A DNA stretch of 64,000 nucleotides. Origin: Elusimicrobiota bacterium (lineage in GTDB: Bacteria; Elusimicrobiota; Elusimicrobia; Elusimicrobiales; UBA9959). The notes beneath the pieces were generated by a model. The model was not told the origin of the DNA. It saw only the letters and a program-made list of their open reading frames with translations, and did not search any database. The stretch lies in the NCBI GenBank assembly GCA_030651035.1, contig JAUSCK010000277.1, positions 7,711-71,710 on the forward strand. The letters run 5' to 3'. The translations under genes and the position numbers were made by a program. Of this stretch, positions 1,791 to 52,312 are shown in pieces; position 1 is the first letter of the stretch; every line of letters begins with the position of its first letter.

Positions 1791-3356
1791 CTATTCTTTT
1801 ACCGCTATAACATAATGTGTGCTCTGCGGGACCGTGGCCCGAAACAGCGGGGTCTCGCCTTCGGCCGAGATCTTTTCCGGGACTGCCTTAGCCCAGCCTC
1901 CGTCGGTAAGGTAAAGCAGCGTCGCCTCACCAGCGGCTGCGCCGCAGGCCCCGGTCAGGCGGAATTCCATAACCAGGTCCCCCTGTATATTGCCGGGGAC
2001 GCCCACCAGCTGCAGCGAAGAGCAGGCCTTAAGTCCGCCCGGAAGTGCCGCGGCCAGCTTCTCCGGAAGTTCCCCCTCCGCCGCGTTGAAAACCTCGGGC
2101 GCAGGGCCCCTGGACAGCACCCTCATGACTATGGCGCGGGCAGGGGATTCCTCACATACCCCCTCGAGCATGAACTGCACCCCGGCGGGAGAGATCTTCA
2201 GCGGCTTGGCTTGAACGGCGTAGGCGTGCAGTTTGACGGCCTGGAGTTTTTCCGAGGCCAGCACGTTCTCCCTGGGCGAGCGCAGGGCGGGCGCCTTTTT
2301 CTCTCCGAACCTGAAAGAGATAGAAAAGCGGTGCGAATTACCTATATCGCCGAAAGGGGAGAACGCGTAATCAAAAGAGAGTCTTTCCAGCTCCAGCCCC
2401 ATGCCGGCCGAGAAGCCGGACCAGGCTCCGAGCTCGTTGCCGTGCAGGCGGTAGCGGTAGCCGGTGCGCAGCGCCAGGCGCCCGGTCAGCTGCTGCTCCA
2501 GGCCGAGAGCGAGGAAGGGATAATTATCAATCGGTTTGGAAACGTCCAGGCTCAGCAGGGCGCCGGCTTCCGGTATGTGGTGGCTGAGGCCGGCACGCAG
2601 CGTCAGGGGCAGGGCGTAGCTTTTCGACGACAACTTGAGCCCCGGCCCGATGTTCAGCGCCGAAGCCCCGGCGGTAAAAAGGCGGCCGCCCAGCCAGTTG
2701 AACGAGCGGGTCACACCGAGATCAAGCGCGGCTGTGGAGCCGGACTCGTCGTCGATGGTCTGGCTTATGAACTTTACGGCGCCGCCGATATTGGTATCGG
2801 CATCGTAGGCGAAGCCATAGCCGAGTGAGAAAGCCAGGTCGTAGGCCTTGAAGGTCCCTTCCACCGGGGAGATCGGATAGAGCGGGTCGCTTTCGTAAAG
2901 CCCGCTGCGCCGCTCCAGGTCTTTCGGCGTGTGGAAATAATTCAGAGCCAGCCCCCACGTTCCCTTCTTAAGATAGGACGGCCTGAGAAACCGAAGCTTC
3001 TCTCCCTCCGTGGTATAGACGAACAGCTCCTGGCCGAGGTCCTGAAAATACTCGTTATGAGTGAAACTCGCGCGGCGCTCTTTCAGCCCGGCCAGCCCGG
3101 CCGGGTTCCAAAAAATGGCATACGGGTCGTCGGCGACCGCGGTAAAGGCCCCGCCCATGGAGACGGCCCGTGCTCCCGCGCCTATCTTGAGGAAAGCCGC
3201 GGAAGTGGAACCGGCGTCGGGGTGGATCTTCGCGGCATAAGCAGGGAGGGAGTTCAGCGCCAGAAACTGCGCGACAAGGGCAGACAGAACGACCGCGCCT
3301 TGTTTTCGCCAAACAAAGCCGTTCCGTAAAAAGTTAAATCTGCCGTTCAATTTCAT
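1791..3356 (-). CDS. Outer-membrane beta-barrel, PorV/PorQ- or FadL-like, with an extra C-terminal domain
   Basis: Signal-like N-terminus (LNSLPAYAA) followed by LKIGAGARAVSMGGAFTAVADDPYAIFWNPAGLA, a motif typical of PorV/FadL-type barrels. Alternating strand pattern runs to about aa 370, then about 150 further aa. Start set to ATG 3356 (GAGGGA 4 nt upstream); the track start at 3377 is GTG. Confidence 0.7.
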   Translation of the reverse strand: MKLNGRFNFLRNGFVWRKQGAVVLSALVAQFLALNSLPAYAAKIHPDAGSTSAAFLKIGAGARAVSMGGAFTAVADDPYAIFWNPAGLAGLKERRASFTHNEYFQDLGQELFVYTTEGEKLRFLRPSYLKKGTWGLALNYFHTPKDLERRSGLYESDPLYPISPVEGTFKAYDLAFSLGYGFAYDADTNIGGAVKFISQTIDDESGSTAALDLGVTRSFNWLGGRLFTAGASALNIGPGLKLSSKSYALPLTLRAGLSHHIPEAGALLSLDVSKPIDNYPFLALGLEQQLTGRLALRTGYRYRLHGNELGAWSGFSAGMGLELERLSFDYAFSPFGDIGNSHRFSISFRFGEKKAPALRSPRENVLASEKLQAVKLHAYAVQAKPLKISPAGVQFMLEGVCEESPARAIVMRVLSRGPAPEVFNAAEGELPEKLAAALPGGLKACSSLQLVGVPGNIQGDLVMEFRLTGACGAAAGEATLLYLTDGGWAKAVPEKISAEGETPLFRATVPQSTHYVIAVKE

Positions 3357-3367
3357 ACGTCCCTCTT

Positions 3368-3430
3368 GACTCCCCACTCCCGATTCTCGATTCCCGACTC
3401 CCGACTATCGACTTTTGATTTTCGATTTCC
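3368..3430. repeat. Nine tandem heptamers GAYTYYC (GRRRRTC on the minus strand)
   Basis: The run reads gactccc cactccc gattctc gattccc gactccc gactatc gactttt gattttc gatttcc. It fills the spacer between the 1070-aa gene stop (3430) and the PorV-like gene start (3356). Confidence 0.9.
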
Positions 3431-6400
3431 TAATGTATTACCGCCAGCTTCTTGGTGACGACCTTGCCGCCGGAAGCGCTTTCAGCGCTCACCCTGTAGA
3501 CGTAGACGCCGCTGGCGATATTCCTTATATCCCAGGTTATTTCCGAGGTGAGTCCCGCCGGGCAGTTAATCTTCGAGAGTTTCGCCACTTTTTCGCCGGC
3601 CACGTTATAGACATCTATCTCGATGGAAGCCTTGTCGGCCACATAGAACTTGAAGGTAAGGGAGTCTCCCCTCGCCGGGTTGGGATAGGTATAGACAGCG
3701 TTGGCCGTCAGCAGCGCGCCGGACGGCACATACTGCATTATCCTGAAAACCGAGAACGAATCCGTCTCGGCCTTCACCTTATTCGCCGCAGCCAGGACCT
3801 CTGAAGTGTCGAGCAGCATCCAGTTGGAGCCTGAAAGCTTGTACAGCCTCAGGTTCTCCTCTTCGAGGCCGGCAATTTCCGCGTCGGTGTAAGGCAGCAC
3901 TACCTCCGCCGGGGAGGTCAGGCGCGTGCCGGGGTTCTCGAATTTGATCTCGTAAACCACGCCGGTGGGCCTGTACTGTGTGTTGGCCTTGGCGGAAAAA
4001 AGCGGCTGGTACGTGGCGGGATTAAGGCGGGTGACAAGTATATTGTCGTTCTGGTTCACGGCGTTGCGGGGGATATCTACTTCCGCGCCGTCGGCCAGGC
4101 GGACGGTCCCGCCCTGCTCCGCGTCGAAAAAGCGCCAGTTGTCGGCGGAGATGCCGTGAACCTCGGCGGTCATGGTGGAATTATTGGTGCTGTCGAAGGC
4201 GGCTACCGCGTAATAATATTTCAGGTTTACCGCCGCGTCGGCGTCCATATAGCCGGTTTCACCGGCGGCGGAGGAGGCGTAAGGCGCGCTGGAAACGTAC
4301 TGTCCCGCCGCCCGCGAGCGGAATATCCTGTAGCCGTAAACGTCGGCCGCTCCGGCGCCGTCGTCGGGTGAAAGCGTCCAGGTCAGCGTCAGCCTGCCGC
4401 CGTGGTCTCCGCCGGCGTCGCTGACGGCCAGCCCCGAGGGAGCGCCCGGCGCCACAAGGTCCAACGTGGCCATCGCTGTCGCCGGATTGGACAGCGCGGA
4501 GTCGTTGCCGTTAAAATCCCAGGCTTTCAGGGAGAAATAATAGGTCACCCCGCCGAACAGCCCGGAGACCTCCTCGGACTCGGCGGAACCGTAAGCCCCC
4601 GAAACGGTTCTGGAGCTCTTCCAGAGCTGCGCGCCGGGGAAACCCGACCAATCGAAAGCGGCGTAAGTGGAATAGCGTATCTCGTAATGCGAGGCCGCGC
4701 CTACCGCGCCGTCATTACCCGGCGCGGTCCAGGCCAGTTGTACGCGCCCGCCCTGCGAACCCTGCCCGGCCGAAAGGTCGGTCACCGCCGAGGGGTCGGT
4801 TCCGTCGCTGGAGGGGTTCTCGTTGGACGAAGCGGCCGAAGCCTGCGGGGAATCTGCCGACTCTACCCACCCGTCGAAAGCCCTTATCCTGTAATAAAAG
4901 ACGGTCCCGGTGGGGGCGGTCGAGTCCACGTATGAGACTGCCGGAGCTAACGACTCAGCGAGCAGGGCGTAGTCCGCGCCGGTGCTCCTGTATATCCTGT
5001 AGGCGGTCACCCCTGCGCCGGGCGAGGCCGTCCAGTCGAGTTTTATCTTGTTGCCGCTGTCCGCCGGGACGTCCGCAGCCGACAGCGAGGCCGGCGGCTG
5101 CGGGCGGTGGTTTACCCGCAATTCGAGCAAAGCCGTGTTGACAGTGGAAGCCGGGGGTGTCTCCTGCGCCGTCAGTTTAAGGTAATAAAGACCGTTGGAG
5201 AGGGCAGAGGTATCCCAGTCGGCCAGCAGCGCGCCCTGCAGTTCCGCCGAAGCCGCGCTGGAAACCACGGTGGTCCAGGCCGGGGGGTCGGAAACCGCGG
5301 CGTATTCCAGCAGGTAGCCGCTCAGCGCGGGGTTCCTTATATACCCCCTTACCGGCACAGTGCCGCTGATAATCTCCTGCGGAGCCGGGGAGGAGAGGGA
5401 GGCCGCGCGCGCCGCACGCCAGGCCATCAGGTTGCCGCCATGTGTGCCGATATAGAGCATGCCGTTGGCTACGGCCGGCGAGGAGAAGGTGTAGGTGGAC
5501 AGCAGCACCTGCTGCAGCTGCGCGCCGGCGGTGGAGAAAAAGACCAGCCTTCCGTCCGCGGTCCCGGCGCAGATAACGCCGTTGGCCAAAGCCGGAGAGG
5601 ACATGAGGCCCAGGTTGGAAACATTGCCCAGCGTAGGGGAACTGGCCCAGACCCCCTCCAGTCCTGAGCGGGACAGCGCCATCAAATAATGCGGCGACGA
5701 GCCCGCGCCCATATAGATATTGTTCCCGTCGAGCAGGGGCGAGGTGACGCCCATCCAGCCTTCCCCGCCGGACTGCGGCTCAAGCGGTCCGGAAACGCCG
5801 AGCTGGCTGCCGTCCGCAGCGGAAAGAGAGAAAAGCCGCCGTTCGTCGCGGCCGGGAACGGCGTAGACTGAACCGCTGGAAACTGCCAGCGCAGCCATGC
5901 CGTAGCTGCCGCCTATGCTCTGGTAGTAGCCGGCCCCCGGCCAGGCCGCTGCGCCGGTTTCCGCATCCACGGCGTAAGCCCGGCCGTCGTTGGCCCCGAA
6001 GAACACCCTCTCACCGTCGGAAGAGGGAGAGGAATCTACAGGCTGACCGCCCGGCAGGGCAGTCCTTTTCTCAAAAAGCAGCGCCCCGGTGGCGGCACTG
6101 AAAGCTTTGAGCGAGTTCCTAGGCAGCCCCACCCCGGCATAAACCCGGCCGTCGAGATAAAGCGGTGAAGAGACCGAGGTTCCCCCGAGTTCGGCGGTCC
6201 ACAGCACGGCCCCGCTCAGCCTGTCCAGGGCGTAAAGCCGGCCGTCCATGGAAGGGATAAAGACCCCTGCGCTGGAGACGGCCGGAGAGGCATCCACCCA
6301 GCCATCGGTAGAATAATCCCAGACAAGTTCTCCCGTGCGGGCGTCCAGCGCGTACACGCTGCCGGAACGCGCGCCGAAAAAGACCTTGCCGTCGTAAACG

Positions 6401-6630
6401 GCCGGGCTGGAGAGGACGTCGCCCTGCACCTGGAAAGTCCAGGCCGGCGTGAAGGGCGGGTAGGCCTGCTCGGAGGTATAACCGGTGCGCGCGGCGTCCC
6501 CCCTGAACATGGGCCAGTCCGCGGAAAGAACCGGCGAGTTCGGAACGCAAAGGGCAAAGAGCAAAAGCGTTGCCTGCCCGAAAATCTTCCGGGGCAGTTT
6601 CAGTATAAATGAAACGGCGTTTCTCTTCAT
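3430..6630 (-). CDS. Secreted PQQ/BamB-like beta-propeller, three FN3 domains and a T9SS-type C-terminal sorting domain
   Basis: Signal peptide (ATLLLFALCVPNSPVLSA), then DWPMFRGDAARTGYT and repeated propeller blades. Three FN3-like units follow (e.g. KIKLDWTASPGAGVTAYRIYRS). The C-terminus VYTYPNPARGDSLTFKFYV...IDVYNVAGEKV...SGVYVYRV...KKLAVIH matches the Por/T9SS CTD pattern. Start ATG 6630 (GGAGAGG upstream); the track start at 6642 is GTG. Confidence 0.8.
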   Translation of the reverse strand: MKRNAVSFILKLPRKIFGQATLLLFALCVPNSPVLSADWPMFRGDAARTGYTSEQAYPPFTPAWTFQVQGDVLSSPAVYDGKVFFGARSGSVYALDARTGELVWDYSTDGWVDASPAVSSAGVFIPSMDGRLYALDRLSGAVLWTAELGGTSVSSPLYLDGRVYAGVGLPRNSLKAFSAATGALLFEKRTALPGGQPVDSSPSSDGERVFFGANDGRAYAVDAETGAAAWPGAGYYQSIGGSYGMAALAVSSGSVYAVPGRDERRLFSLSAADGSQLGVSGPLEPQSGGEGWMGVTSPLLDGNNIYMGAGSSPHYLMALSRSGLEGVWASSPTLGNVSNLGLMSSPALANGVICAGTADGRLVFFSTAGAQLQQVLLSTYTFSSPAVANGMLYIGTHGGNLMAWRAARAASLSSPAPQEIISGTVPVRGYIRNPALSGYLLEYAAVSDPPAWTTVVSSAASAELQGALLADWDTSALSNGLYYLKLTAQETPPASTVNTALLELRVNHRPQPPASLSAADVPADSGNKIKLDWTASPGAGVTAYRIYRSTGADYALLAESLAPAVSYVDSTAPTGTVFYYRIRAFDGWVESADSPQASAASSNENPSSDGTDPSAVTDLSAGQGSQGGRVQLAWTAPGNDGAVGAASHYEIRYSTYAAFDWSGFPGAQLWKSSRTVSGAYGSAESEEVSGLFGGVTYYFSLKAWDFNGNDSALSNPATAMATLDLVAPGAPSGLAVSDAGGDHGGRLTLTWTLSPDDGAGAADVYGYRIFRSRAAGQYVSSAPYASSAAGETGYMDADAAVNLKYYYAVAAFDSTNNSTMTAEVHGISADNWRFFDAEQGGTVRLADGAEVDIPRNAVNQNDNILVTRLNPATYQPLFSAKANTQYRPTGVVYEIKFENPGTRLTSPAEVVLPYTDAEIAGLEEENLRLYKLSGSNWMLLDTSEVLAAANKVKAETDSFSVFRIMQYVPSGALLTANAVYTYPNPARGDSLTFKFYVADKASIEIDVYNVAGEKVAKLSKINCPAGLTSEITWDIRNIASGVYVYRVSAESASGGKVVTKKLAVIH

Positions 6631-6690
6631 ATGCCTCTCCACCGCCTTAAAAGCCTTCGCTCTTTACGCTTCCGGCCTATACGGTCTTCT

Positions 6691-9600
6691 TCACGGGCCG
6701 ATGCTCAGCACGTAAGTCTTGCCGTCGCCGGAACCTGTTATCAGCACTCTGTTCTCTATGTCCGCTACGGGGTCGGCCCTGACGGGGCCGCCGGTGGCCA
6801 CAGGCCAGCCGTCGCGCAGCTGGCCGGTATTCGCGTTGACCGCGTAGATATAGCTGTCGTCGCAGCCGAAATAGACGTAATCCTCAGCCAGCCCGACGTA
6901 GCCGCCGGGAACCAGCACCGGCGAGGACCGGATCTGGCCGTTGGCCTGGAAAGTCCAGGCCTCGGCGCCCGTGACGGCGTTTATCTTGTGCAGCCTGCCG
7001 GCGTCGTCTCCCACAAAAATATACTTCGTCCCGCCAAGCGGCCAGATGAAAGGAGAGGAATAAAGCGGGGAGAACAAGTCCACGTAGCCAAGGGCCGGCC
7101 AGCCCGTCGGGATGCTCTCCAGGTTGGCCGCCACCCTGGCGTAGAGCCGGCCGTCGGTGGAAGCCAGGTAAAGATTGTTATTAGCGCCGCCGTAGCCGGC
7201 GTCCACGTACGGGGAAGATTTAATGGCGGCGCCGGTCTGGAAGGAGGTATCCACGTAGCCGTCTCCGGTCCTGAAGGTCACCATCTTGCCGTTGTCCAGG
7301 CCTATCCAGCCGCGGTTGACGTCGGTACGGTCGTCTATGGACAAGGTCCCCACGATAGGAGAATTTACGCTGGAGCTGAAGGTCCAGTCGGCGCAGTTCA
7401 GGCCGTCGGAGACATTAAGACAATAGATCTTGCTGTCCATGGTGCCCAGGTAGAGGCGCTCACCTATGACCATTACGCTGGAGCGCACGGCGGAACCGAG
7501 GCCGCGCTTCCAGACCTGGGAGACGCCGGGACCGTTGTCCTGCACCCGGTATATATCGCCGTTGTCGTTGGCAAAATAGACCTGGGGAGCGCCGCTGGGC
7601 CAGGGCACCGTCGGCCCGTTCCTTATGGGCGAGGCGGGGGACGGAGTGAACGCCCACTTGAACGTGCCGTCGCCGTTGAGCGCGCGCAGCACGCCGTCGG
7701 TGGCCGGGGAATAGACCGTGCTGCTGCCCTCATTGGTATAGTAATCGACCGGCGCTTCCACCGAGGTGGGCTCCGGAGGCGTGTAAGGCCAGGAGGTCCC
7801 GGCCGGCGCGGAGGACGGGGCTATGGCGGTCACCGAGGAGCTCTCGATCTCGGCCGCCGCCGGCAGCAGCTGCGCGAAGTCGGAAGGCCCGTCCCTCACG
7901 GTCAGTTCCGTATCGGCCCTGAACCTCAGCCTGAACACGTTGACGGCCTGCGAGGCGGCGTCCGCCTTCATCATGACCACCGCGAAGAAAGTGGCGGTAG
8001 AGGCGGCCGCCACCGAATTCGCGGCGGCGCCGGGGTTGGCCGCCGTGATAACCTGCGTTCCAAAAGCGTCCAGGGAGATCTCGCCGTTGCCGACGTAGGC
8101 CGCGGTATCGGTGTCTATGGCCGGCTCATAGATCCCGGGCAGGCCGGAAGCGGAATCCCTGGCTATATAGACGGCGTCGAACAGGGCGGAGGCCTTCGCG
8201 GTGTCTAACGGGTTGAGATCCGCGTCGTAGAAACGCAGCGAAGCCGAGGCCAGCTCGACGCTGTTATAGCCGGAGGGGCTGTTATTGGAGACATAGAAGA
8301 GGGCCAGGTCGTCGGAAGCGCCCTGGTTTACGCGCGCCGGGGCGGTGGTGGAAGCGGAAACGGTATGGACACTGGCGTCGTAAGTAACCGCGGCCAGCGC
8401 CAGCTGCGGGGCCGAGTCGGAGACGGAGTCGCTGTTGAGCAGCAGGCGGTAAACTGCGTTATGGACAAGGGCATGGCCGTCCTGGTCGGCGAACGAAACT
8501 CCGGCCTGGGCCGTGGACTGGGCCGCCAGCGAGGCCAGGTCGAAGCCTATGTCGCCCAGCCGGTAGAGATGCGGAGAGTAGTTGTCGGCGGCGCCTCCGG
8601 TCCGGATAAGCGCGATATTATCGGCGGTCCCTCCGGAGGAGTCGGCGCCGAGGGTCAGGCGCAGCGGGAACAGCCGCGGCAGCTTCTGGCCTTCGGCCGG
8701 GTAGGCGAGAGTATTGGCCGCGCCTGCGCCGGCCCCATTGTTCCTGGACATGGGCGTGGCGGCCACGGCAGCGGAGACAAAATCAGTGGAATCCGAGCCT
8801 ATGTCCTCTCCCTCCGAGGGCCGCCTGCCTATCGAATACGGCGCATTGGCCGGGGCGTAAGCCGCCGCGGACACCTGCGCGGCCTTGTAATTATACAGGC
8901 TGTAGCTGGTCCCGCTCTGCCAGGTAACGCGGTCCACGGTCTGCCCGACGGCGTTCTCAAGGGAAAGATAATCCCCGGCAGCGTTCAGCCCCCCGGTTCC
9001 GAAGGCCGACTGCCAGGACAACTGGTCGTCGCTGATCGAAGAGAAAACCAGCAGTGAATAATTCCCGGCATATATCTTGCGGGTGAACGTGAACTTCACC
9101 GCGTTGGAATTCCTGAGCGAATAGCCGCTGAGCGTGGGGGTATCCGCGCCGGTGTTAAAGAGTTCCACGAACTCGGAAGAAAGCGTCCCGTAGGCGGCCT
9201 CGTTTATTTTGACGAGGCCCGTGCTTATGGCGTTGGCGTAGCCCCTCGTCGGGGTCGGGTCAGCCTCGAAGAAGTCGGCGTTGCCGTCCTCTATCCTGGC
9301 GAAGGACTGGCCGGCTTCGAGATAAGGCCACTGCACCCTGTCTATGAGCACGCCGGAGGGATCTTTCAGCAGCAGGTGGTAGCTCTGAGCGCCGTTGAGG
9401 TTGAATGAAATGGTGCTTACAAAATGTGCGTTCACGCTGCTCCTGTCTACGTCCGCGCCGGTCCAGACCGTCACCTCGGGGCCCGGCAGGTCTATGGTGC
9501 CCTGGTTATAGACCAGCGTCCAGCCGGTCAGGTTGAACGTGCTGGCGGTGTTGTTGAAGAGCTCCACCCAGTCGTCGACGGCGGCCGCGCCGGAAGGATA

Positions 9601-12600
9601 GACCTCGTTGATATAGACATTGGCCGTCTGCGGCAGGCTGGAAGGCACGTTGGAAATGGCCGAAGTGCTGCCCGCCTTGTCATAGGTCTTTACCGCGAAG
9701 TAATAGGTCTTACCTGCCTCGAACCCGTAAAGCACCTTCGATTCCGTAACGCCGGCGCCCTGCGGGACCCAGGCCTGGGCGTAAACGCCCGCGGAGTCGA
9801 ACAGGGCCGCGGTTATATTGTAGGTGGCCGCCCTGACCAGATAGCCGCCCTGCGCGTTATCATTGAGCGCCCCGTCGTCGCCCGGCGCGGGCCATTCCAG
9901 CTTCACCGAGCCCCTGACCGGGCCGGGAGAGGCCGCAAGCGCGGTTATATCGGCCGGGGCCTGGGTGTCTTTAAGCACTTTAAAGGCGTCAACGAGCGTG
10001 GCGCTGGAAGAAGCCCAGTCCCAGACCCGCACCGTGATATAGTTCGTGCCGTGGGCCAGCAGGCCGAAGTTCATACCCCAGTCCGCGCTATAGGAGTTGC
10101 CCACGCCGGTGCCGGAGGAGATAACAGCGTTGTCCACCGCGTTGGCCCCGGTCTGGGCAGCCCCGGTCCAGGCGGAATATGTAATGGACGAGATCTGCGC
10201 CCCGCCGGAGTCGGCAAAGTTCACGTCGTAGATGTTCCCCGCGTCCGCGCTGCGCCAGGCCGGGTCGAAGCCGGCTGCCAGGTTGTTGGTTATAGTCGGG
10301 ACAGTAGTGTCCTTCCTGACGTAGAAGGCGTCCACCGCGGAGTTGGAGATGTTGCCCACATTGTCCAGCGCCCTGACCGAGACGTATGACTGGCCCTGCG
10401 GCAGTATATTGAAGGTGCCGGCGGCCAGCGGCCAGTCGGTGGTGTAGGAATCCAGGTTTATGCCCGTCACCTGGTCCGTCCAGTCCTGCAGCAGCGTTCC
10501 GCCCAGGCCCGCCGCGGAATGGACCTTGGTCTGGACGCGGGCCAGCCTGGAGCCGCCGGAATCTGTGGCGTCGACGTTATAGTAGGCGCTGGCATTGCGC
10601 CAATTGTCGTCGCCGGCCTGGTTGTCCGCCGCGGTGGGCGGCACTATATCGTGCCTGTCGAAGTCCGCCGCGGCGAATTCATAGATATGACCCGAGCCGC
10701 TCTGTTCATGCAGAGCATTGGCGGAGGCCCCGGCGGCTGCCCAGGCAGAGCCGTTCCAGACCGTGCTCCTGACGTCGTTAGCCGGCCCATCGACTCCCAG
10801 CGCGGTTATATTGTCGGTGTTAGGGTCCGGTATCAGCGAGAGCCAGGTTATGCTGCCGGCGAACACCGTGTTGTTGTTGGTGGCCGTCACCGACGGGCTG
10901 GCGGGGCTCCAGGTCCCGGCGGACCAGGTAATCCAGTCAAATTTATTATCAGTAGCTCCGGCGTCATCCACCGCCACGGCCAGCAGCTGCCCGGACTGGG
11001 ACTCCCAGGCGCAGTCGGTCATCCTGTAGCCCGTCCCGCTCATCGCCGTATCTTCCGTAGGCAGGGCTGACCAGGCCTCGGCTCCTGCGGGCCGCCAGAC
11101 CGCCATGTTCCAGTCTATATCGCCGTCGAGCGAGGTGAGGCCTATCCGGTTGGTGGACGGATCGGAGCAGAGGCGTATCCAGTTAGCGCCCGCCGTGGCG
11201 GCCAGGGCCGGACCGGCGGTCGGAGCGCCCCAGGTGGAGGCGGAATACCACTTGCGGTAACTGGTGCCGGTGCCCGTGCCCCACAGCACCAGCGCGTCTC
11301 CGGTCTGCGTCTCCCAGGCGGCGTCGAAACTTTCCTTCGTGGCTATGGAACCGGCCGTGGTCAGGTTGACGTTGTCTATCCAGACCGAGCCGTTCCAGAC
11401 CGCGGCTGAGATGTCGGAATTGGCGTCCAGGGCCGTCAGGAGTATCCTGTCGGTGCCCGGCATGGACCTGAGCCGCACCCAGTTGACGGTGCCGGTAAGC
11501 GAGGTCAGCGGGAGGCTGGCGGGGCCGGCCGCCCAGGCCGAGGCCGAGGCCGACCAGACGGCGTAGGTCACCGCGCCGGTGGTACCGTTATAGTAGGCCG
11601 TCATGATCCGGCCGCTCAGGTTCTCTGCGGCCATGTCGAAGCGCCGCGTGACCGAGCCGCCCGGGGCGGGCGCGGGAGCGGGCGTGGCGTCCGACCAGGC
11701 GGAGCCGTTCCATTTGAGCACCTTCAGCGAATTGTCGGAATAGAGCAGCCCGGCCAGTTTCTGGTTCGCCACCAGGGGCACGGACTTAAGCACGGACCAG
11801 CGTATGACCGAGCCGGTTACGCCGCTGTCGGCCTCCGCGCTCCAGTTAGGCGGGACCCAGGTCTGGTATCTCAGGTTGGCGGAATTATCGCCGTAGACCA
11901 GCATGCCGTCCGCCGCCCCGGCGGGGGCCGCGGTGCCCACTATCACGTTGGAGATAGGAGCGGTATTTCCGGCTTCGTCCACCGCCTTGATGGCGATGGA
12001 ATAGGTGGCGCCGGGCGAAAGGCCGTCCAGGACCCTGGCCTCGGCCTGGCCGTAGGCCAGCGGCGTCCAGGTCTGGGTGTAAGAGGAAACGTTCGGCGCG
12101 CTGAAATTCCCGGAGTTCACGGCGAAAGTGGCGTAGCGCACGATATAGGCCTGCGCCGTGCCGGCCCCAGCCACGCCCGCCACCCCTTCGCCGGGGGCGG
12201 TCCAGTAGAGGTTCACCTGGCCCTGGAAATCGCCCTGCAGCGAACTGAGGTCGGAGACGGTCTCGGGCGCGGTGAGGTCCAGCCCGGCATAGGTGGAGGT
12301 CAGGTTGGACAGCGCCCCGGTGTTACCGGCCTTGTCCACGGCCTTCACCGCGGCGTAATACGTTACCGAGGGGGTCAGGCCGGCTATAATGATACCCTCG
12401 CCCTGCCCGGCCGCCTTCGGGGTCAGCGTAGAGACGAACACGCTCACGGCGTCGAAGTTGCCGTCGTTTATGGCGTCGGTGTGGTAGCGTATCATGTAAT
12501 AACTGGCGGAGCCCGCCAGGGCATTGTCCCCGACGGCGGTCCAGTAGACATTAAGTTTCCCCTCGTCGGCGGCCGCCGGCGGCGTGACGGCTGACAGCGC

Positions 12601-15600: not shown

Positions 15601-18600
15601 CGCGCCGGGATCGGCCGCCAGCCAGTCGGTATCCGCCTGGTTGTCGGCTACGGATGGGTTGGTGACGTCCTTGAGCACGTAGAAAGCGTCCTCCGCCGTG
15701 CGGGAAGAGCCCAGCGCGTCCCAAGCCCGCACCGAGACGTAGTTCGTGGCCGTCTCCTGCAGGGCGAAGAAATCCACGCCCCAGTCCGCGGTGTAGGAGG
15801 CGTAGGCCTGGCCGCTGAAGAGGTCGGTCCAGTTCTTCAGGACGGTCCCCGCGCCGTTCGGCAGAGAGGTGACCCTGTACTGGGCGGTGCTCACCCCCAC
15901 CCCGGAGTCGGCGAAGTCCATGTTATAGAGCGAGCCGGAAGCGTTGCGCCAGTTGTCGTCGCCTGCCTGGCCGTCCGTAATGGAAGGGGCGCTGGTGTCC
16001 TTGCGTATCACGAAGGCATCCGCGGCCGCGGAGGACAGGGCCACCCTGTCGAAAGCCCGGACGGAGACGTAGTTGGAGCCGTCCTTAGCCGCGGCGAAGT
16101 CCACGCCCCAGGCCGCGTCGTAGAGAGCCAGGCCCCCCGGAGTGAAGCTAATCACGGTCCAGTCCTTGTACAGCCCCCCCCCCCCGGCGGGCAGCGAGGT
16201 TATGCGGTATTCCACCGAGGTGAGGCCGCTGGAGAGGTCGCGGAAATCCACGTCGAAGACCGCGCCCGGGTCGGAGCCGTACCAGGCCGTGGGGCTGGCC
16301 TGGTTATTTATAACCTCGGGGCTGGAGACATCCACGATGAAAGCCCGCGTGGCCGCCCAGGCGGAATAATTCGCGGCGGCGTCGGCGGCCCTGACACGCC
16401 AGTAATAAACCCCGTCGCCCACGGCCGGCAGCGAGGCCGCTGAGACTGCCGGGGCGGAGGCGTAGGCTACAACCTGGAAATCGGCGCGGGTCGAGACCTC
16501 TAGCGCGTAGCCGGAGGTCCCGGAGCGCAGGTCGGAAGAATCGGTCCAGTCGAAAGAAACGGCGGAGACGGAATACAGGGCATTGTCCGCCGGCGAGGAA
16601 AGTGCCGGCGCGGAAGGCGGCGTGGTGTCCTTGAGCACGGTGAAGGCGTCGTCGAGCGCCGCGCTCTGGGCCAGCGCGTCATAAGCGCGCACCGAAACAT
16701 AATTAGTGAAGACTTCGGAAAGAGCCGCGAAGTCCACCGCCCAGTCGGAGGAATAGGAGGCCTGCCCGGGAGTCAGGGACGCGATGTTTGTCCAGTCCTT
16801 CAGCAGCGTCCCGGTCTGGCCCGCTCCGGACATGACCTTATACTGCGCCGTGGCCAGGCCCGACAGCGAGTCCAGGAAATCCACGTTATAGACCGTTCCC
16901 GCCGCGGCGCGCCAGGCCGCGTCGCCCGTCTGGCCGTCCGTTATCGACGGGGCCGAGGTATCCTTCTGCACATAGAAGGCGTTGTCGAAGGTTCCGGAGC
17001 TGGGCACCAGGTCGTGGGCCCGCACCGAGACGTAATTGCGCCCGGCGGCCAAGGCGTCGAACACGGCTCCCGGCAGCGCCCAGTCGGCCGTGTAATCAAC
17101 GGCGCCGAGGGCGGTCACTACGTCGGTCCAATCAGGAGCGTAGGCGCAGCCGGAGGTACAGGTGGAGGCGCGCACCTGGAACTTGTCGAGGTTCTGGCCC
17201 GACTGGGACTGGAAGTCCATGTTGTAAACGCCGGTATTGGAAGCGCGCCAGGTATCGTCGCCGGACTGGTTGTCGATTATAGAGGGCGCGGAGGCGTCCT
17301 TGTACAGCGAGAAGACGTCCTGGATGTGGGAATTGCCGGCATTGTCATAGATCCTGACCGTTATATACGAGTAAGCCAGGTTTGGCAGCACGGCGAAATT
17401 CACGGACCAGTCCTGCGTGTAGGAGGCTGCGTTGATCCCGGTGACTATATTGGTCCACGGTATGACTTCGCCCCCGGTCTGGTAACCGTCCGACCAGGCC
17501 GTGTACTGCGCGTAAGAGAGCAGCGAGCCGCCGGTATCGGTGAAGTCCGCGTTGATAGCGGAGAGGTCGGCCTGGGAATGGGCGGCGGCGATATCCGCCT
17601 GGTTGTCGGTCACGCCGGGCGCGGAGACGTCCTTGCGGACATGGAACACGTCGTAGGAGGTGGCGTCCTGGGCCAGCGTGTCGAAGACGCGCACGGTGAG
17701 ATAGAAGGTCCCCTCAGGCAGCAGGCTCCAGGCCGCGGCCGAGAGGCTCCAGTCGGAGCTGTACGAAGGCGCGTTCAGGGCGGAGAAGATATCGGTCCAG
17801 TTCTTCACCTGCGAGCCGCCCATGGAAACATCCGTGCTGATATAATACTGCGCCGTGGCCAGGCCGGAGAGGGCGTCGGCAAAGTCAACGTTATATACGG
17901 CGGAGTTGGAATTGCGCCAGGTATCGTCGCCGGCCTGGGAATCGGTCACGGAAGGGGCGAAAGTGTCCTTGAGCACTGTAAAAGCGTCCGCGAGAGTACC
18001 CGTGGAACCCGCCAGATCCCAGGCCCGGACGGAAATATAGTTGGTACCCGCTGACAGCAGGGAGAAGTTCACCGCCCAGTCGCCCTGGTACTGCTGCTGG
18101 CTGTAGCCCGCGGCGATGTTCGTCCAGGGGACGGGATTAGCTCCAGTCTGGCCCGCCCCGGTCCAGGCCGAGTACTGGAGCGTATCCAGCGTCGAGAGCG
18201 CGTCGGCGAAGTCGATGTTATAGACCGCGCCGCCGTCGGCCTTGCGCCAGGAAACTTCTCCCGCCTGGCCGTCGGTAATGACGGGGGCGATGGTGTCCAC
18301 CACCAGGGCATAGGCGGACGGGTAATCCGAATAATTGCCGGCGTTATCGCTGGCACGGACCTTCCAGTAATGCGTGGCGGACATGGAGAGGGCTGCGGTG
18401 AACTGGGAGGCAGCCGGCGCGCCGGAGGAAGCGATGACGGAGAAGCCGCTGTGCGTGGAAACCAGCGCTTCGTAACCGTAGATCCCGGAGGTGCCGTCGG
18501 AAGAGTTAGTCCAGTCCAGCGTCGGGCCCAGCGTGCGCACGTAGGCGAAGTCAGCAGGCGTAGAAAGCGACGGCACGGAGGGGACGGTGGTGTCCTTCCT

Positions 18601-34857: not shown

Positions 34858-34869
34858 AAACTTTTTCCT

Positions 34870-35316
34870 CTACTCTTCCGCCGCGCCGCCGCCGCTTGTC
34901 GGCCTCGGCGCTTTTTTCTTTTCCCCGTCCTTATGCCGCTCTTCCTCTTTCATCATCTCGATGATATCCTGCACGCTGAGGCCCACCAGCCAGTGGTTCA
35001 CCTCTTCGCGCAGGGTTTCGTACAGCTTTATGGAGATCTGTTTCCGGTCGGCTTTGGGCGCGCCGTTGAAAGTGAAGGACTCCATCAGTTCCCAGACGCT
35101 GATATCGTCCAGTTCTTTGTTCAGGCGGTAGCCTTTGCCTTTCTGAGATTCCACGAAACCCGCGTGCACCAGCGCCTGCAGCACCTTGTTGCAGTAGGCC
35201 GCAGGCAGGCCCTGGAATTTGGAGATCTGCCCTACTTGGTTCCAGGCGCCGCCATTGTTCTGCCCGAGGTAATGCAGGCAGGCCAGGCCATAAGCTAAGG
35301 TGCGGTTCATCTTCAT
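34870..35316 (-). CDS. Rrf2-family transcriptional regulator without a Cys cluster
   Basis: 148-aa winged-helix N-terminus (RTLAYGLACLHYLGQ...ISKFQGLPAAYCNKVLQALVHAGFVESQKGKGYRL). It lacks the three C-terminal Cys ligands of IscR/NsrR. Its stop lies 12 nt before the giant gene ATG. Confidence 0.8.
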   Translation of the reverse strand: MKMNRTLAYGLACLHYLGQNNGGAWNQVGQISKFQGLPAAYCNKVLQALVHAGFVESQKGKGYRLNKELDDISVWELMESFTFNGAPKADRKQISIKLYETLREEVNHWLVGLSVQDIIEMMKEEERHKDGEKKKAPRPTSGGGAAEE

Positions 35317-35335
35317 AAAAATATCTGTATTCGCC

Positions 35336-35364
35336 AGCCATTGGACACTTCTTATCCAATGGCT
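35336..35364. promoter_or_regulatory. Perfect 10-bp inverted repeat (candidate Rrf2 operator)
   Basis: AGCCATTGGA-N9-TCCAATGGCT, total 29 bp, lies 20 nt upstream of the Rrf2 ATG. The size fits Rrf2-family operators. Confidence 0.55.
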
Positions 35365-35370
35365 CCCCAG

Positions 35371-35400
35371 AAAAAAGGCGGCACTATACTAGCCTGCCGC
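35371..35400 (-). terminator. Hairpin plus U-tract (terminator of the rSAM operon and/or leader attenuator of the Rrf2-giant unit)
   Basis: The minus strand reads GCGGCA-GGCUAGUAUAG-UGCCGC followed by CUUUUUUCU. It lies downstream of the predicted -10 at 35415-35420. Confidence 0.4.
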
Positions 35401-35414
35401 TTGTTGATATCTAT

Positions 35415-35442
35415 AGTATAGCAGGCGTATTTCCATAGTCAA
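35415..35442 (-). promoter_or_regulatory. Sigma70-like promoter for Rrf2 and the giant gene
   Basis: The minus strand reads TTGACT-N16-TATACT. The -35 box overlaps the rSAM stop codon (35439-35441). Confidence 0.5.
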
Positions 35443-36536
35443 GGGGTAATCTCGCGACTCTTGGATACATAAATCTGGCTCATTATTTTCGCCATTTCAC
35501 AGGCCGGTTTATTGGGAGCGAACAGGTTTCCTTCCTCAATAAGGCTCAAGCCGGGACAGCGGCTGCAGAAGTCTATATCCGCGCAGGAGGCGCAGCCTTT
35601 AAGGTCCCGCATTCCTGCGCTGCGCCATTTTTTAAGCCAGGCCGAGTTTTTCCAGATGTCGGAGAAGCTTTGCCTGGTCAGATCCCCCAGTTTTACCGGA
35701 ACCTGCAGGCAGGAATAAAGCCCGCCCTCCGGGCCGACAGCGCAGACATTGCGGCCGGCGCCGCATAGAAAATCCAGGGTCGGGGAGTCGGGAGTCGAGA
35801 GTCGGGGGTCGAGCGCAGCGAGACTGTGCTTGTCGGGAATCGGGGAGCGGGGATTAAGAGGCGCGGAGAGAAGTTTTACTGCTTTTGACAGCTGCGGGCC
35901 GGAGAGGCGCAGGGGGAGGGCGGAGGCGTTGCCGTCGTTGGTTGAGGTTATAGTCGGGTCGAAAGAGATATCAAAGCCTTCTGTTTCAGCGAGTTTCCTG
36001 AGCCAGCCGGCCTGGCCCAGGTTTTTTTTCATCAGCGGGGTTTTAAATTTCACTTTTATGCCGGCCGCCTTAAGCAGGCGGGCCGCCGCAAGGGTGTGTT
36101 TAGAAGAATTTTTCACGCCGGTAACGGAATCATGCAGGGCGGGTTTACCATAAAAACTGAGCTCAAAGGCGGAAACCCCGGCTTTCTTAAATTCAGCGGC
36201 AAGTCCGGGTGTCAGCCCCAGGCCAGTGGAAAAAACACGGACGTCGAAGTTGAGCTTTTTTGCGTGGCGGCAGAGCTCGGCCAGGTCGGGACGCAGCAGG
36301 GGTTCCCCCCCGGTATAAACCAGGTAAAGCGCGCCGGCTCCCGCCAGCTGCGCGAGGATATTCTTCCATTGGGCGGTTGTCAGTTCAAGGCCGGCGGGGG
36401 CGCGGCCGCGGGTCTCCGGCAGGTAACAATGCAGGCAGGCGAGGGGGCAGCGGCGCGTGAGCTCAATAGTGACCGCCGCCGGGATATTCCGCTCAAGCGT
36501 AAGCGTGTTCAGTTTAGCCGCAATTGCGAATTTCAT
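35439..36536 (-). CDS. Radical SAM / SPASM-domain peptide maturase
   Basis: 365 aa with the CPLACLHC (CxxxCxxC) cluster, GGEPLL, and a C-terminal Cys-rich SPASM region (FLCGAGRNVCAV...CLQ...GCASCADIDFCSRCPG). Confidence 0.85.
   Translation of the reverse strand: MKFAIAAKLNTLTLERNIPAAVTIELTRRCPLACLHCYLPETRGRAPAGLELTTAQWKNILAQLAGAGALYLVYTGGEPLLRPDLAELCRHAKKLNFDVRVFSTGLGLTPGLAAEFKKAGVSAFELSFYGKPALHDSVTGVKNSSKHTLAAARLLKAAGIKVKFKTPLMKKNLGQAGWLRKLAETEGFDISFDPTITSTNDGNASALPLRLSGPQLSKAVKLLSAPLNPRSPIPDKHSLAALDPRLSTPDSPTLDFLCGAGRNVCAVGPEGGLYSCLQVPVKLGDLTRQSFSDIWKNSAWLKKWRSAGMRDLKGCASCADIDFCSRCPGLSLIEEGNLFAPNKPACEMAKIMSQIYVSKSREITP
35777..35870 (+). repeat. GRRRGTC word array embedded in frame in the rSAM gene
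   Basis: The plus strand reads GGGTC GGGGAGTC GGGAGTC GAGAGTC GGGGGTC ... GTC GGGAATC GGGGAGC GGGGATT AAGAGG. This is homologous to the minus-strand reading of 3368-3430 (GTC GGGAATC GAGAATC GGGAGTG GGGAGTC AAGAGG). It encodes LNPRSPIPDKHSLAALDPRLSTPDSPTLD between the rSAM core and SPASM. Confidence 0.75.
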
Positions 36537-36563
36537 ATCCGGATTTCCCGAATGGGGTGCGAA

Positions 36564-36905
36564 TTACACGAACAACAGAGCAAGCGAGCGGCGGATCTTT
36601 GAGTAGATATAGCCGCAAAGGCCGCCGGCAAGGGGGTTTCGGCTCAGGACTTTGCCGCGGATATTTTCCCATGGCACCAGGTGGGGTTCCAGGCGGCCGG
36701 CGTCATCCGCCAGCCAGGCGCCTTCCGGCCCGGTTTTTACCACCCGGTGAAGCAATATGCGGCCCTCAAGATCGTATACAGCGCAATCGCCTGGGGAAAG
36801 GATAAGGGATGAGGGATGAGGGATGAGGGGATGCACGAGGGCAATCTCGCCGGGTTTAAATACCGGGAGCATGCTTGACCCCTCAAGACGGAAAGCGGCG
36901 GGCAT
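36564..36905 (-). CDS. S26B-type (SipW/Sec11-like) signal-peptidase-fold protein, candidate leader peptidase
   Basis: 113 aa. EGSSMLPVFKPGE (GxSMxP Ser box) and ILLHRVVK (His in place of Lys, as in archaeal/ER-type S26B). The ATG lies 2 nt after the precursor stop. Confidence 0.6.
   Translation of the reverse strand: MPAAFRLEGSSMLPVFKPGEIALVHPLIPHPSSLILSPGDCAVYDLEGRILLHRVVKTGPEGAWLADDAGRLEPHLVPWENIRGKVLSRNPLAGGLCGYIYSKIRRSLALLFV
36797..36831 (+). repeat. Five tandem heptamers RARGGAT inside the peptidase gene
   Basis: aaaggat aagggat gagggat gagggat gagggga, encoding the loop PLIPHPSSLILSP in frame. Confidence 0.85.
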
Positions 36906-36907
36906 AT

Positions 36908-37045
36908 TCAGGAAAATTTTTTAAGCGTCTTACAGGCCAGCTGGCTGATGGGCCCGGTCTGGCACTTGCCGCAGGCCAGCGCGGCGGTCTCAAAGACCTT
37001 TTCGGTCTTTATTTTAGGTTTTTCGTATGTCTTCTTTTTTTTCAT
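36908..37045 (-). CDS. 45-aa candidate RiPP precursor peptide (not in the ORF track)
   Basis: My translation is MKKKKTYEKPKIKTEKVFETAALACGKCQTGPISQLACKTLKKFS. GGGGGAG sits 7 nt upstream of the ATG. The ORF begins 14 nt after the PqqD stop, and its stop is 2 nt before the peptidase ATG. It has a PqqA-like KP leader, an A-L-A site and three Cys. Confidence 0.7.
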   Translation of the reverse strand: MKKKKTYEKPKIKTEKVFETAALACGKCQTGPISQLACKTLKKFS

Positions 37046-37059
37046 AGATCACTCCCCCG

Positions 37060-37323
37060 TCAGGTCTTTTTAGCAAGCAGGCCGGCTTTCAAAAGCTCGG
37101 CAATAAAGCTGTTCATATCCGCGCGGGCGGTTTCTTCGTCCACTTCGAATTCGGCCGTAATTGCCGAGACCAGGGCGCTTTCCTTTTTACCGGAGGCAAG
37201 GCCTTCCCAGATAAGGGCGGCGGGGCTGTTCAGCTCGTGCAACTCGGCCCGGGAGGCGTCCACTATGAACATTTCCCCGGCAATGCGCCGGTAAGCCAGG
37301 TCCTTTTTAATATTGGTCTTCAT
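37060..37323 (-). CDS. PqqD-family peptide chaperone (RRE)
   Basis: 87 aa. IAGEMFIVDASRAELHELNSPAALIWEGL...ITAEFEVDEETARADMNSFIAELLKAGLL fits the PqqD pattern. Confidence 0.8.
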   Translation of the reverse strand: MKTNIKKDLAYRRIAGEMFIVDASRAELHELNSPAALIWEGLASGKKESALVSAITAEFEVDEETARADMNSFIAELLKAGLLAKKT

Positions 37324-39451: not shown

Positions 39452-42001
39452 TTAACCTCCCAACACGCGCGCCCTTGCCCGCCAAAGCCCGGCTTTTTTC
39501 TGTTCCCCGCGCGCGGCATACAGCCGGGCCATCGTCGTCGCGGCTTTAAAGCTCAAAGGGTCGCGGCTTACGGCGACCTCGCAGCAGCGCAGCGCGCGGC
39601 CGAGATCTCCCGTCTGCGCGGCATAGTACGCCAGCTGCAGCCAATCGTCCGACCCCCAATTGCGTCCGAACCTCGCTTCCAGCCAGTCCAGGAACCGCAG
39701 TGTCAGGGCCGGCCTGCCCGCCAGTACCGGCCAGACCGAACGCTGGAATAAGTCGGTATGCGTATAGAAAATGACAAGGGCCTGCTCGAGGAAGCGGGGG
39801 TCATCCGGGCCGCGCAGTTTTATATTGTAGGACCCGGGGTTTATGGCCACCTGGTCGGGCGGCGGCTCTTTCGTGTACCGCGCGGCAACCGCCTGGAATT
39901 CCAGCAGCGGGAGATCGTCGGTGTTCGGCGTCACTTTCGCCAGGTCCGGGCGCGGGAAGATATCGCCGGTCAGCAGGATATTATTCAGATGCATGAACGG
40001 GTCCGCGCCGCTGGCGCCGGTCTCTACCGCTTTTTGTACCCCCGGCGGCAGCCAGGCTCCGGCGGCGGAACGCAGCTTCACTTCGGAATCGGAACAGACG
40101 AGCACATAATAGTTCGCGCGGGCGAGCGCCAGCCCGCAATGCCGGAAATTCCGGGACAGGGTGGCTAGTATCGTGTCCACCCCCGCGTTCGACATGTCGA
40201 GGTAGGTGAACCAGAGCAGGTAGACGCCGTCCGGCGCGAGGGCGCGCTTCACCAGGGTGTAGAACTCCATCGTGTGCAGTTTGGCCGCGGCCGCGTAGTC
40301 CGGCGGGGGCAGCGTGCTGACTATCGCGTCGTACGGCGCGCGGGGCCGGGCCAGGAACCTGCGCCCGTCGTCATGGTAGATAGAGGCCCCGGGGTTGCGG
40401 GCCAGGTCGAGGTTCGCGCCGGGAATTATAGGGAGCAGGGGGCGGCAGGCGCCGTTGATCTCCACGATATCGGTATGCCCGAACAGCGAAGCCACCGTTC
40501 CGGCCGTTATGCCGGTACCCAGGCCGAGGACGAGGGCCCTGTCCCTCCTGGGGGCCGCCAGGGCGGGCAGCACGCCGTAGACGGTCTCGGAGATGTTGGC
40601 GTTATCCTTCGTCCCGAAATGTATCCCTCCCACGCCGTTGTGTATTATGGACGAATTGATACGGCCCCGGACATAGGTGACATTGTCGGACGCGGACTTG
40701 AAGTGGACCAGCGTGGCGCCGGGTTCATACGGCGTGTTGGCCGCATACACCAACCCCTGCGGCAGGCCGGTAACCCGCCAGCACAGCAGGGCGGCAGCGC
40801 ACAGGGTCGGCAGGCGCCGCCGGGCGAACCCGGGCCCTTCGTAGACGAGGGCCGCGGAGACCAGCAGGGCGGCGCCTAAGACGGGAGCCGTGAAAAGCCC
40901 GGACAGCGGGTGGACGGCGAAAGTGTAGAGCAGGAGCCCGACGGCGTTGCCCAGGCCGGACACCAGCAGCAGCCGCCCGCTGTCGCGCGCCAGGCGCGGC
41001 GAGGCGCCGGCCAGCGCCGGGATGGCTCCCCAGAACCAGATTACCGGCAGGCCGCCCAGCAGGAATGCGAAAAAGAGCTTAAGCGCTACAGCGGCCGCTT
41101 CCGTAGACACCCCGGCCAGGAGGCCGTAATAGCCCTTCACCAGCAAAGGGAAAGCGGCGTAGATCAAGCCGATGCCGAAAGCCGAGAGCAGCGCGCAGTC
41201 GGCGAACCCCGTGTTCCGGCGGCGGACCAGCCAGGTCCCGGCCGTAATGGAGAACAGGGTGGCCGCGGTGCAGACGGCGAAGTTCTCGCGGCTGGGCAGG
41301 AATATACAATAGCCGGCCTTGAGAAAAAAAGCCGAGAACAGCGCCCCGCCCAGGCTGGCCAGGAACAGGGCCGTTCCCTGCCGGAGAAAAGGGGAGGGAG
41401 CATCCGGCAGTTCAGTTTTTTTTACCTCGCGGAGGTCGGGCCGCAGCCAGAGCGCCAGGCCGCAGGCCAGGCTCAGCGCGCCCAGCAGCCGCAGCGACAC
41501 GATCACGCCGAAATAACGGACGGCGGCAAACTCCATGAGGAGCAGCCCGGCGGCGGCGCCTATATTATAGAGGGAGTACGCCGAATGCAGCGGGAAATCC
41601 CCCTCCCCCCGCCGCTCCAGGTAGGCGGCGAACAGCGGCACGGCGAACCCCGCCGCTACCGCCGGAACGGCTAGCAGCAGCGCGGAAGCCAGCACGGCCT
41701 GCGCGCCGGGATGCGGAAGCAGCTCCGCAAGGGGCGAGGCCTCGTAAGCCCGCGCCAGCGCCGGGAAAAAGAAAGCGTACGCGCCGGCGGCAAGCTCGAA
41801 AATATGAAGGCGGGAAGCGAAGCGGTGCGCTACCCACGCGCCCAGGCCCAGGCCCAGCAGGAAAACCGCCACGAGCGCGGCGTGGACATAATACATGTCG
41901 CCCAGGAAGGTGGTCAGATGGCGCAGGTAGAGGACCTCGCAGGCGACGCCGCCGGCGCCGGAGAGCACGGATAAAAGCAGGAGCAGGTTGACGGGGTTCA
42001 T
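39452..42001 (-). CDS. Fused polytopic membrane / spermidine-synthase-fold protein with C-terminal TPR
   Basis: 849 aa. N-terminal SGAGGVACEVLYLRHL plus about 12 hydrophobic segments, a class-I MTase/spermidine-synthase-like core (ALVLGLGTGITAGT...DIVEIN...YDAIVS) and a TPR-like tail. Confidence 0.7.
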   Translation of the reverse strand: MNPVNLLLLLSVLSGAGGVACEVLYLRHLTTFLGDMYYVHAALVAVFLLGLGLGAWVAHRFASRLHIFELAAGAYAFFFPALARAYEASPLAELLPHPGAQAVLASALLLAVPAVAAGFAVPLFAAYLERRGEGDFPLHSAYSLYNIGAAAGLLLMEFAAVRYFGVIVSLRLLGALSLACGLALWLRPDLREVKKTELPDAPSPFLRQGTALFLASLGGALFSAFFLKAGYCIFLPSRENFAVCTAATLFSITAGTWLVRRRNTGFADCALLSAFGIGLIYAAFPLLVKGYYGLLAGVSTEAAAVALKLFFAFLLGGLPVIWFWGAIPALAGASPRLARDSGRLLLVSGLGNAVGLLLYTFAVHPLSGLFTAPVLGAALLVSAALVYEGPGFARRRLPTLCAAALLCWRVTGLPQGLVYAANTPYEPGATLVHFKSASDNVTYVRGRINSSIIHNGVGGIHFGTKDNANISETVYGVLPALAAPRRDRALVLGLGTGITAGTVASLFGHTDIVEINGACRPLLPIIPGANLDLARNPGASIYHDDGRRFLARPRAPYDAIVSTLPPPDYAAAAKLHTMEFYTLVKRALAPDGVYLLWFTYLDMSNAGVDTILATLSRNFRHCGLALARANYYVLVCSDSEVKLRSAAGAWLPPGVQKAVETGASGADPFMHLNNILLTGDIFPRPDLAKVTPNTDDLPLLEFQAVAARYTKEPPPDQVAINPGSYNIKLRGPDDPRFLEQALVIFYTHTDLFQRSVWPVLAGRPALTLRFLDWLEARFGRNWGSDDWLQLAYYAAQTGDLGRALRCCEVAVSRDPLSFKAATTMARLYAARGEQKKAGLWRARARVLGG

Positions 42002-52270: not shown

Positions 52271-52312
52271 ATTAATCATTTCCCGCTGCCCCCCCCTCTG
52301 AATAATTAGTTA

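Follow-up and report, generated by a model that had tools for sequence, protein, structure and literature searches.

A run of twelve consecutive G lies in frame on the coding strand of a giant gene in the genome of an Elusimicrobiota bacterium. On balance, we lean towards regarding this tract as an incidental or very young mutational hotspot rather than as a conserved, selected phase-variation switch. An earlier note on this DNA had read it as a potential slipped-strand switch. The length of the run and the stops uncovered by slippage speak for the mutational hotspot contained in that reading; the working switch is unsupported by the evidence obtainable here, and we treat the tract as a possible nascent phase-variation site. 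The slipped-strand mechanism is already textbook knowledge, and the tract is at most a new instance of it, though the host is unusual and the gene unusually large. In practice, it is the place in this 28-kb gene at which frameshifts, pseudogene calls, and disagreements between assemblies are most to be expected.

The G12 tract and the giant gene that carries it

The window, by which we mean the whole 64-kb stretch of DNA that was analysed, has exactly 12 C on its plus strand at 16174-16185, read from the window sequence in the context ...acagCCCCCCCCCCCCggcg.... On the minus strand, which is the coding strand of ORF 6691-34857, this is a G12 homopolymer. It starts at ORF nucleotide 18673, in phase 0 at codon 6225, and its four codons (GGG GGG GGG GGG) encode Gly6225-6228 in the peptide LPAGGGGLYKDW. 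Coordinates, phase, and translation thus confirm the twelve in-frame G that had been described for these four glycines. The tract had also been singled out as the longest homopolymer of the window, which it is: A9 comes next, followed by several runs of 8, and the homopolymer listing for the 64 kb contains no other G/C run longer than 8. By the published threshold (a homopolymer of about 7 or more; PMC2193922), it is a hypermutable simple repeat within an ORF. The tract is a genuine feature of this Elusimicrobiota genome, and the gene is full length in its sequenced state.

Shorter G/C runs were found elsewhere in the window. A C8 at 579-586 lies in the gene of an ABC-transporter ATPase, where it falls in RRPPLLLLD shortly ahead of the Walker B region; runs of 8 are therefore tolerated in housekeeping genes here. 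A second C8, at 52289-52296, is intergenic and directly upstream of a TTGACA hexamer, ahead of a subtilase gene (52384-53592, plus strand); it is the only other long G/C run of the window in a potentially regulatory position. A G7 (C7 on the plus strand) is located at 31293-31299. A compositional peculiarity concerns 39452-44301, where two adjacent large ORFs on the minus strand (849 and 767 aa) both have spermine/spermidine-synthase-like domains; this stretch combines a very high AT skew (about 0.21-0.26) with 67% GC.

The giant ORF (6691-34857, minus strand) codes for 9,388 aa and was characterised by ORF analysis, Pfam, and a repeat HMM. A high propensity for proteins of more than 5,000 aa has been reported for Elusimicrobia (PMC11573180); the closest relatives of the present bacterium are groundwater MAGs. 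By inspection, the N-terminus has a Sec-type signal peptide. An HMM built from the gene itself detects Ig-like repeats of about 113 aa, 50 of them full and 9 partial. The other Pfam domains are Ig_Rha78A_N, Big_3_3, fn3, two lamin-tail domains (best Pfam stretch aa 8410-8510, at 9328-9630 on the minus strand), and a C-terminal beta-propeller (best Pfam stretch aa 9277-9385, at 6703-7029 on the minus strand). Neither a type I secretion signal nor RTX motifs were detected in the giant protein, and Pfam revealed no secretion or anchoring module in it (T1SS signal, T9SS C-terminal domain, LPXTG, etc.). Only the downstream neighbour at 3430-6630, a PQQ-propeller protein, has a Por_Secre_tail domain. 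A surface location of the giant protein is probable, as suggested by the signal peptide, by the Ig-like, fn3, and lamin-tail domains, and by the Por_Secre_tail and PorV-like neighbours.

The neighbourhood of the gene (1791-6642 and 34857-36536) is operon-like. A radical SAM/SPASM gene and an Rrf2 regulator are encoded upstream. Downstream are the PQQ-propeller protein, whose Por_Secre_tail is of the T9SS type, and a PorV/UPF0164-like outer-membrane protein. Among the ORFs of the window that were compared with Pfam, none was a mismatch-repair gene.

The repeat that holds the tract comprises aa 6176-6288 (15994-16332, minus strand) and was delimited by the HMM. AlphaFold2 models it as an Ig-like beta-sandwich with a mean pLDDT of 92.1. 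Gly6225-6228 correspond to model residues 54-57, in the short link that joins strand 41-49 to strand 58-72, and in this model the four glycines are predicted to form the beta-hairpin turn of one Ig-like repeat. Matches of the modelled repeat in the PDB are weak and generic (RbmA, the Deinococcus S-layer protein HPI, PKD domains, and SiiE-type Ig folds), the best Foldseek match having an E-value of 1.4e-3 and a TM score of about 0.5.

The same loop in paralogous repeats and orthologues

The equivalent loop in the other 49 full repeats reads roughly T-G-P/A-x-Q-T-G-T-L, with a longest G-run of 2-5; mixed codons at this position in the paralogous modules had been noted before and were found again. 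Orthologous segments were then read codon by codon in the six closest sequences (L004-L009), which are from other Elusimicrobia MAGs and have 82%-94% amino acid identity to the window. At the site of the four GGG codons, these have GGC GGC GGG GAC (L004, 94% identity, and L009, 87%), GGC GGG GGG GAA (L005, 93%, and L006, 89%), GGC GGG GGG GAC (L007, 83%), and GGA GGC GGG GAT (L008, 82%). The peptide AGGG[D/E]L is thus kept in 6/6 close orthologues, but their mixed codons give G-runs of 4-7 only. At the same site, peptides such as GGGT and GGGA, likewise in mixed codons, are found in more distant orthologues, and no G/C run of 8 or more occurs in the orthologous loci L004-L021. The same site in related genomes had been proposed as a check of the phase-variation reading; the tract is missing there. 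Because the six closest orthologues have only G4-G7, the long tract is lineage-specific.

Two of these segments, L005 and L009 (PEXO01000262.1 and PEXO01000443.1), stem from one MAG, Elusimicrobia CG08_land_8_20_14_0_20_59_10, and represent two different copies of the orthologous segment. This MAG contains either two giant-gene paralogues or two strains that were binned together.

The loop has the same length in the window and in the orthologues, and both flanks are orthologous. The unchanged loop length indicates that the tract was built by substitution and not by slippage; slippage alone was therefore rejected as its origin, since substitutions are required. The tract arose through 3-4 point substitutions, all towards G, at a conserved glycine-rich beta-hairpin turn (AGGG[D/E]L) of the giant, probably secreted surface protein. 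One or two synonymous sites went from GGC to GGG, and GA[C/A] became GGG, which replaced Asp/Glu by Gly.

Synonymous divergence from the nearest relative amounts to a dS of 0.27-0.40. For the window compared to L004, dN/dS is 0.143 upstream of the tract and 0.118 downstream; compared to L007, the values are 0.167 and 0.150. Relaxed constraint downstream of the tract, as would result from frequent truncation, was considered and rejected, dN/dS being the same on both sides. Judged by these substitution patterns, the C-terminal third of the protein is under ordinary purifying selection.

How exceptional such a run is depends on the null model, with which the chance estimates vary. A first-order Markov model of the window predicts 0.09 G/C runs of at least 12 per window. 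Shuffling synonymous codons across the whole gene yields P(max run >= 12) = 0.0028. GGG makes up 22% of the Gly codons of the giant gene, and four consecutive GGG codons have P = 0.0024. In dinucleotide-preserving shuffles, G10 was matched at least 3 times in 19 of 100 cases. Overall, G/C runs of at least 8 are depleted in the window (3 observed vs. 8.8 expected). The window also has 66 sites at which a single one of the bases G and C fills at least 9 of 12 positions, and 367 at which it fills at least 8 of 12. In view of these counts, the chance of such a run is not negligible at the genome scale. Extrapolation from the window puts the whole-genome expectation for one such tract in the order of 0.1-1. 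The tract is therefore improbable for this gene and window, yet not significant genome-wide, the genome-wide part being extrapolated.

Long G-runs were also encountered in other Elusimicrobia. In a GWB2_63_16-like clade, a homologous surface-protein gene (a stop-free frame of at least about 1,250 aa) carries a G8 (L022:1959-1966, L040:1959-1966, L041:1959-1966) or a G9 (L023:1964-1972, L039:728-736). These runs are placed in the signal-peptide coding region (MKKLAVFLAFFAFF-K/R-GG-A; AAG/AGG GGG GGG GCG), at the 5' position that is classic for phase-variable tracts. They are kept in three diverged lineages while their flanks vary, and are in frame in all of them. In GWB2_63_22-like Elusimicrobia, an intergenic G10 (L026:767-776, and the same in L043, L044, and L045) is located some 150 nt ahead of a gene for a surface protein of 1,568 aa. 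It is the 3' arm of a hairpin (CCCCCGCG...CGCGGGGG) just past the upstream gene and may act either as a terminator or as a variable element near a promoter.

Slippage products and competing readings

Changes of the tract by one or two units were made in silico, and G11, G13, G10, and G14 all lead to a stop at aa 6235-6237, so that a one-unit change suffices for a frameshift. For G11 or G14, the stop is a TGA at 16152-16154 (minus strand) and the protein ends at aa 6235-6236; for G13 or G10, it is a TAG at 16148-16150 (minus strand) and the protein ends at aa 6236-6237. The truncation that the earlier note had expected from a change of +/-1, with loss of the lamin-tail domains and the C-terminal propeller, is reproduced by these stops. 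It would cost about 3,150 C-terminal residues, that is, the remaining Ig-like repeats, fn3, the two lamin-tail domains, and the beta-propeller. No plausible restart was found after the stop: the first in-frame ATG to follow, at aa 6313, is preceded by 20 bases in which no obvious ribosome-binding site was seen on reading. G9 and G15 stay in frame and would only make the turn shorter or longer.

Runs of 7 or more G/C are known to mediate phase variation (PMC2193922), and in Campylobacter jejuni an increase from G8 to G11 raised mutability 10-fold (PMC3401435). Because its length is well within the hypermutable range of such measured systems, the G12 tract is probably a real indel hotspot. By this analogy we infer both its slippage rate and a length heterogeneity in the population. 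Replication slippage would then yield a minority of cells with G11 or G13 alleles, whose protein would end at about aa 6235 and lack the C-terminal third; 3-base slips would add or remove one glycine in the turn and have no further effect.

The most probable rival reading takes the tract as an evolved contingency locus, in which selection keeps the tract and the gene switches reversibly between the complete protein of 9,388 aa and a form of 6,235 aa without the distal repeats, the lamin-tail domains, and the propeller. Such a switch could serve phage or predator evasion, or altered attachment. We regard this as possible but rather unlikely. Much of what favours it also tells against an incidental origin. 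Four GGG codons in a row are unlikely by codon usage (P = 0.0024-0.0028), and apart from the tract the window has fewer long G/C runs than expected. The 3-4 changes all go towards G, and one of them is non-synonymous at a position where all six close orthologues keep Asp/Glu; this directional look could reflect selection for the tract. The gene codes for a protein with a probable surface location, and surface proteins are the class for which contingency tracts are typical. The poly-G run of pgtA from Neisseria gonorrhoeae is a close precedent (PMC2193922). Finally, homologous surface-protein genes of other Elusimicrobia have G8-G10 at their 5' ends or ahead of them, including the G8/G9 conserved in the signal-peptide region in another clade.

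Several observations count against such a selected switch. The long tract is missing in 6/6 closest orthologues, and constraint is not relaxed downstream of it. Tuned phase-variable repeats are enriched near N-termini, that is, at the 5' end (PMC3315296, PMC2831843), whereas the tract sits at codon 6225 of 9388, 66% into the giant gene. There is no second G/C run of 9 or more in the 64 kb. Nor was a length variant observed in the recovered sequences, among which no same-species copy spans the site: a degenerate DNA pattern of the tract flanks with a variable gap had 0 matches in the metagenome contigs, and a protein-guided scan of these contigs returned relatives at 65% identity or less.

A wider claim would combine a new contingency tract that toggles the giant surface protein with the conserved G8-G9 runs elsewhere, and conclude that homopolymer phase variation of giant surface proteins operates in the phylum. 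We consider this unlikely. If true, it would extend homopolymer phase variation beyond the host-associated pathogens for which it is known. If the length of the present tract varies, a giant surface protein would be subject to stochastic switching in a free-living, uncultivated lineage, by a switch that truncates the protein rather than abolishing it.

An artefact of sequencing, assembly, or polishing, with a mixed-codon Gly stretch or another run length as the true sequence, is improbable. Homopolymers are error-prone on several platforms, and the independent sequences that we could compare do not span the tract: two Logan contigs of SRR13727527, a data set that contains the same strain, match the window at 100% identity over 4,158 and 7,359 bases, covering 33124-37281 and 3227-10585 (11.5 kb) and thus the two ends of the giant gene only. 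However, this complete identity to independent short-read contigs, which includes other runs, indicates that the window assembly is accurate in general. In addition, the run is in frame, its length fits the orthologous alignment codon for codon without an indel, and both flanks are orthologous. An artefact would need to mimic 3-4 substitutions rather than a length error.

A role at the nucleic acid level, as a G-rich structure or through transcriptional or ribosomal slippage giving two products per allele, is suggested by the presence of the run alone and is highly improbable: one G12 cannot provide the four G3 tracts of a standard quadruplex, no partner C-rich arm was seen on reading the flanks, transcriptional slippage has been characterised mainly for A/T runs, and the run is not conserved in relatives.

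Comparison with known systems

The giant protein resembles giant Ig-like-repeat adhesins and matrix proteins (Bap, SiiE, and RbmA-type folds) in being a very long, probably secreted protein with tandem beta-sandwich repeats of about 110 aa. Its array of about 100-aa beta-sandwich repeats is typical of adhesins (50 full repeats, model pLDDT 92). It differs from these proteins in that the fold matches are weak and that, in place of T1SS/RTX features, it has a signal peptide at the N-terminus and a propeller at the C-terminus.

The polyG/C contingency loci of C. jejuni number about 29 per genome in a low-GC background, have a modal length of 9, and are conserved across strains (PMC3401435, PMC4965091). 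In contrast, a single tract was found here in 64 kb of a genome with 60%-65% GC, and it is not conserved in relatives. Common to both are a G/C homopolymer of 8-13 bases in the reading frame of a surface-related gene and, as measured in C. jejuni, a mutability that climbs with run length.

The closest parallel is N. gonorrhoeae pgtA, in which a poly-G run encodes four glycines and is phase variable in some strains, while others carry GGGAGCGGGG (PMC2193922). Length variation of 9-20 G and on/off switching were shown experimentally for pgtA and tied to a phenotype (PMC2193922), whereas no variation was seen here; the two proteins are not related, the present host is a groundwater bacterium that has not been cultivated, and the G12 tract is much further from the gene start in absolute terms. 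In both cases, the run is specific to an allele or lineage, GGGAGCGGGG in pgtA of other strains differing by a few bases. In both cases, too, an in-frame poly-G run within an ORF encodes four consecutive glycines, and the change of a single base truncates the protein.
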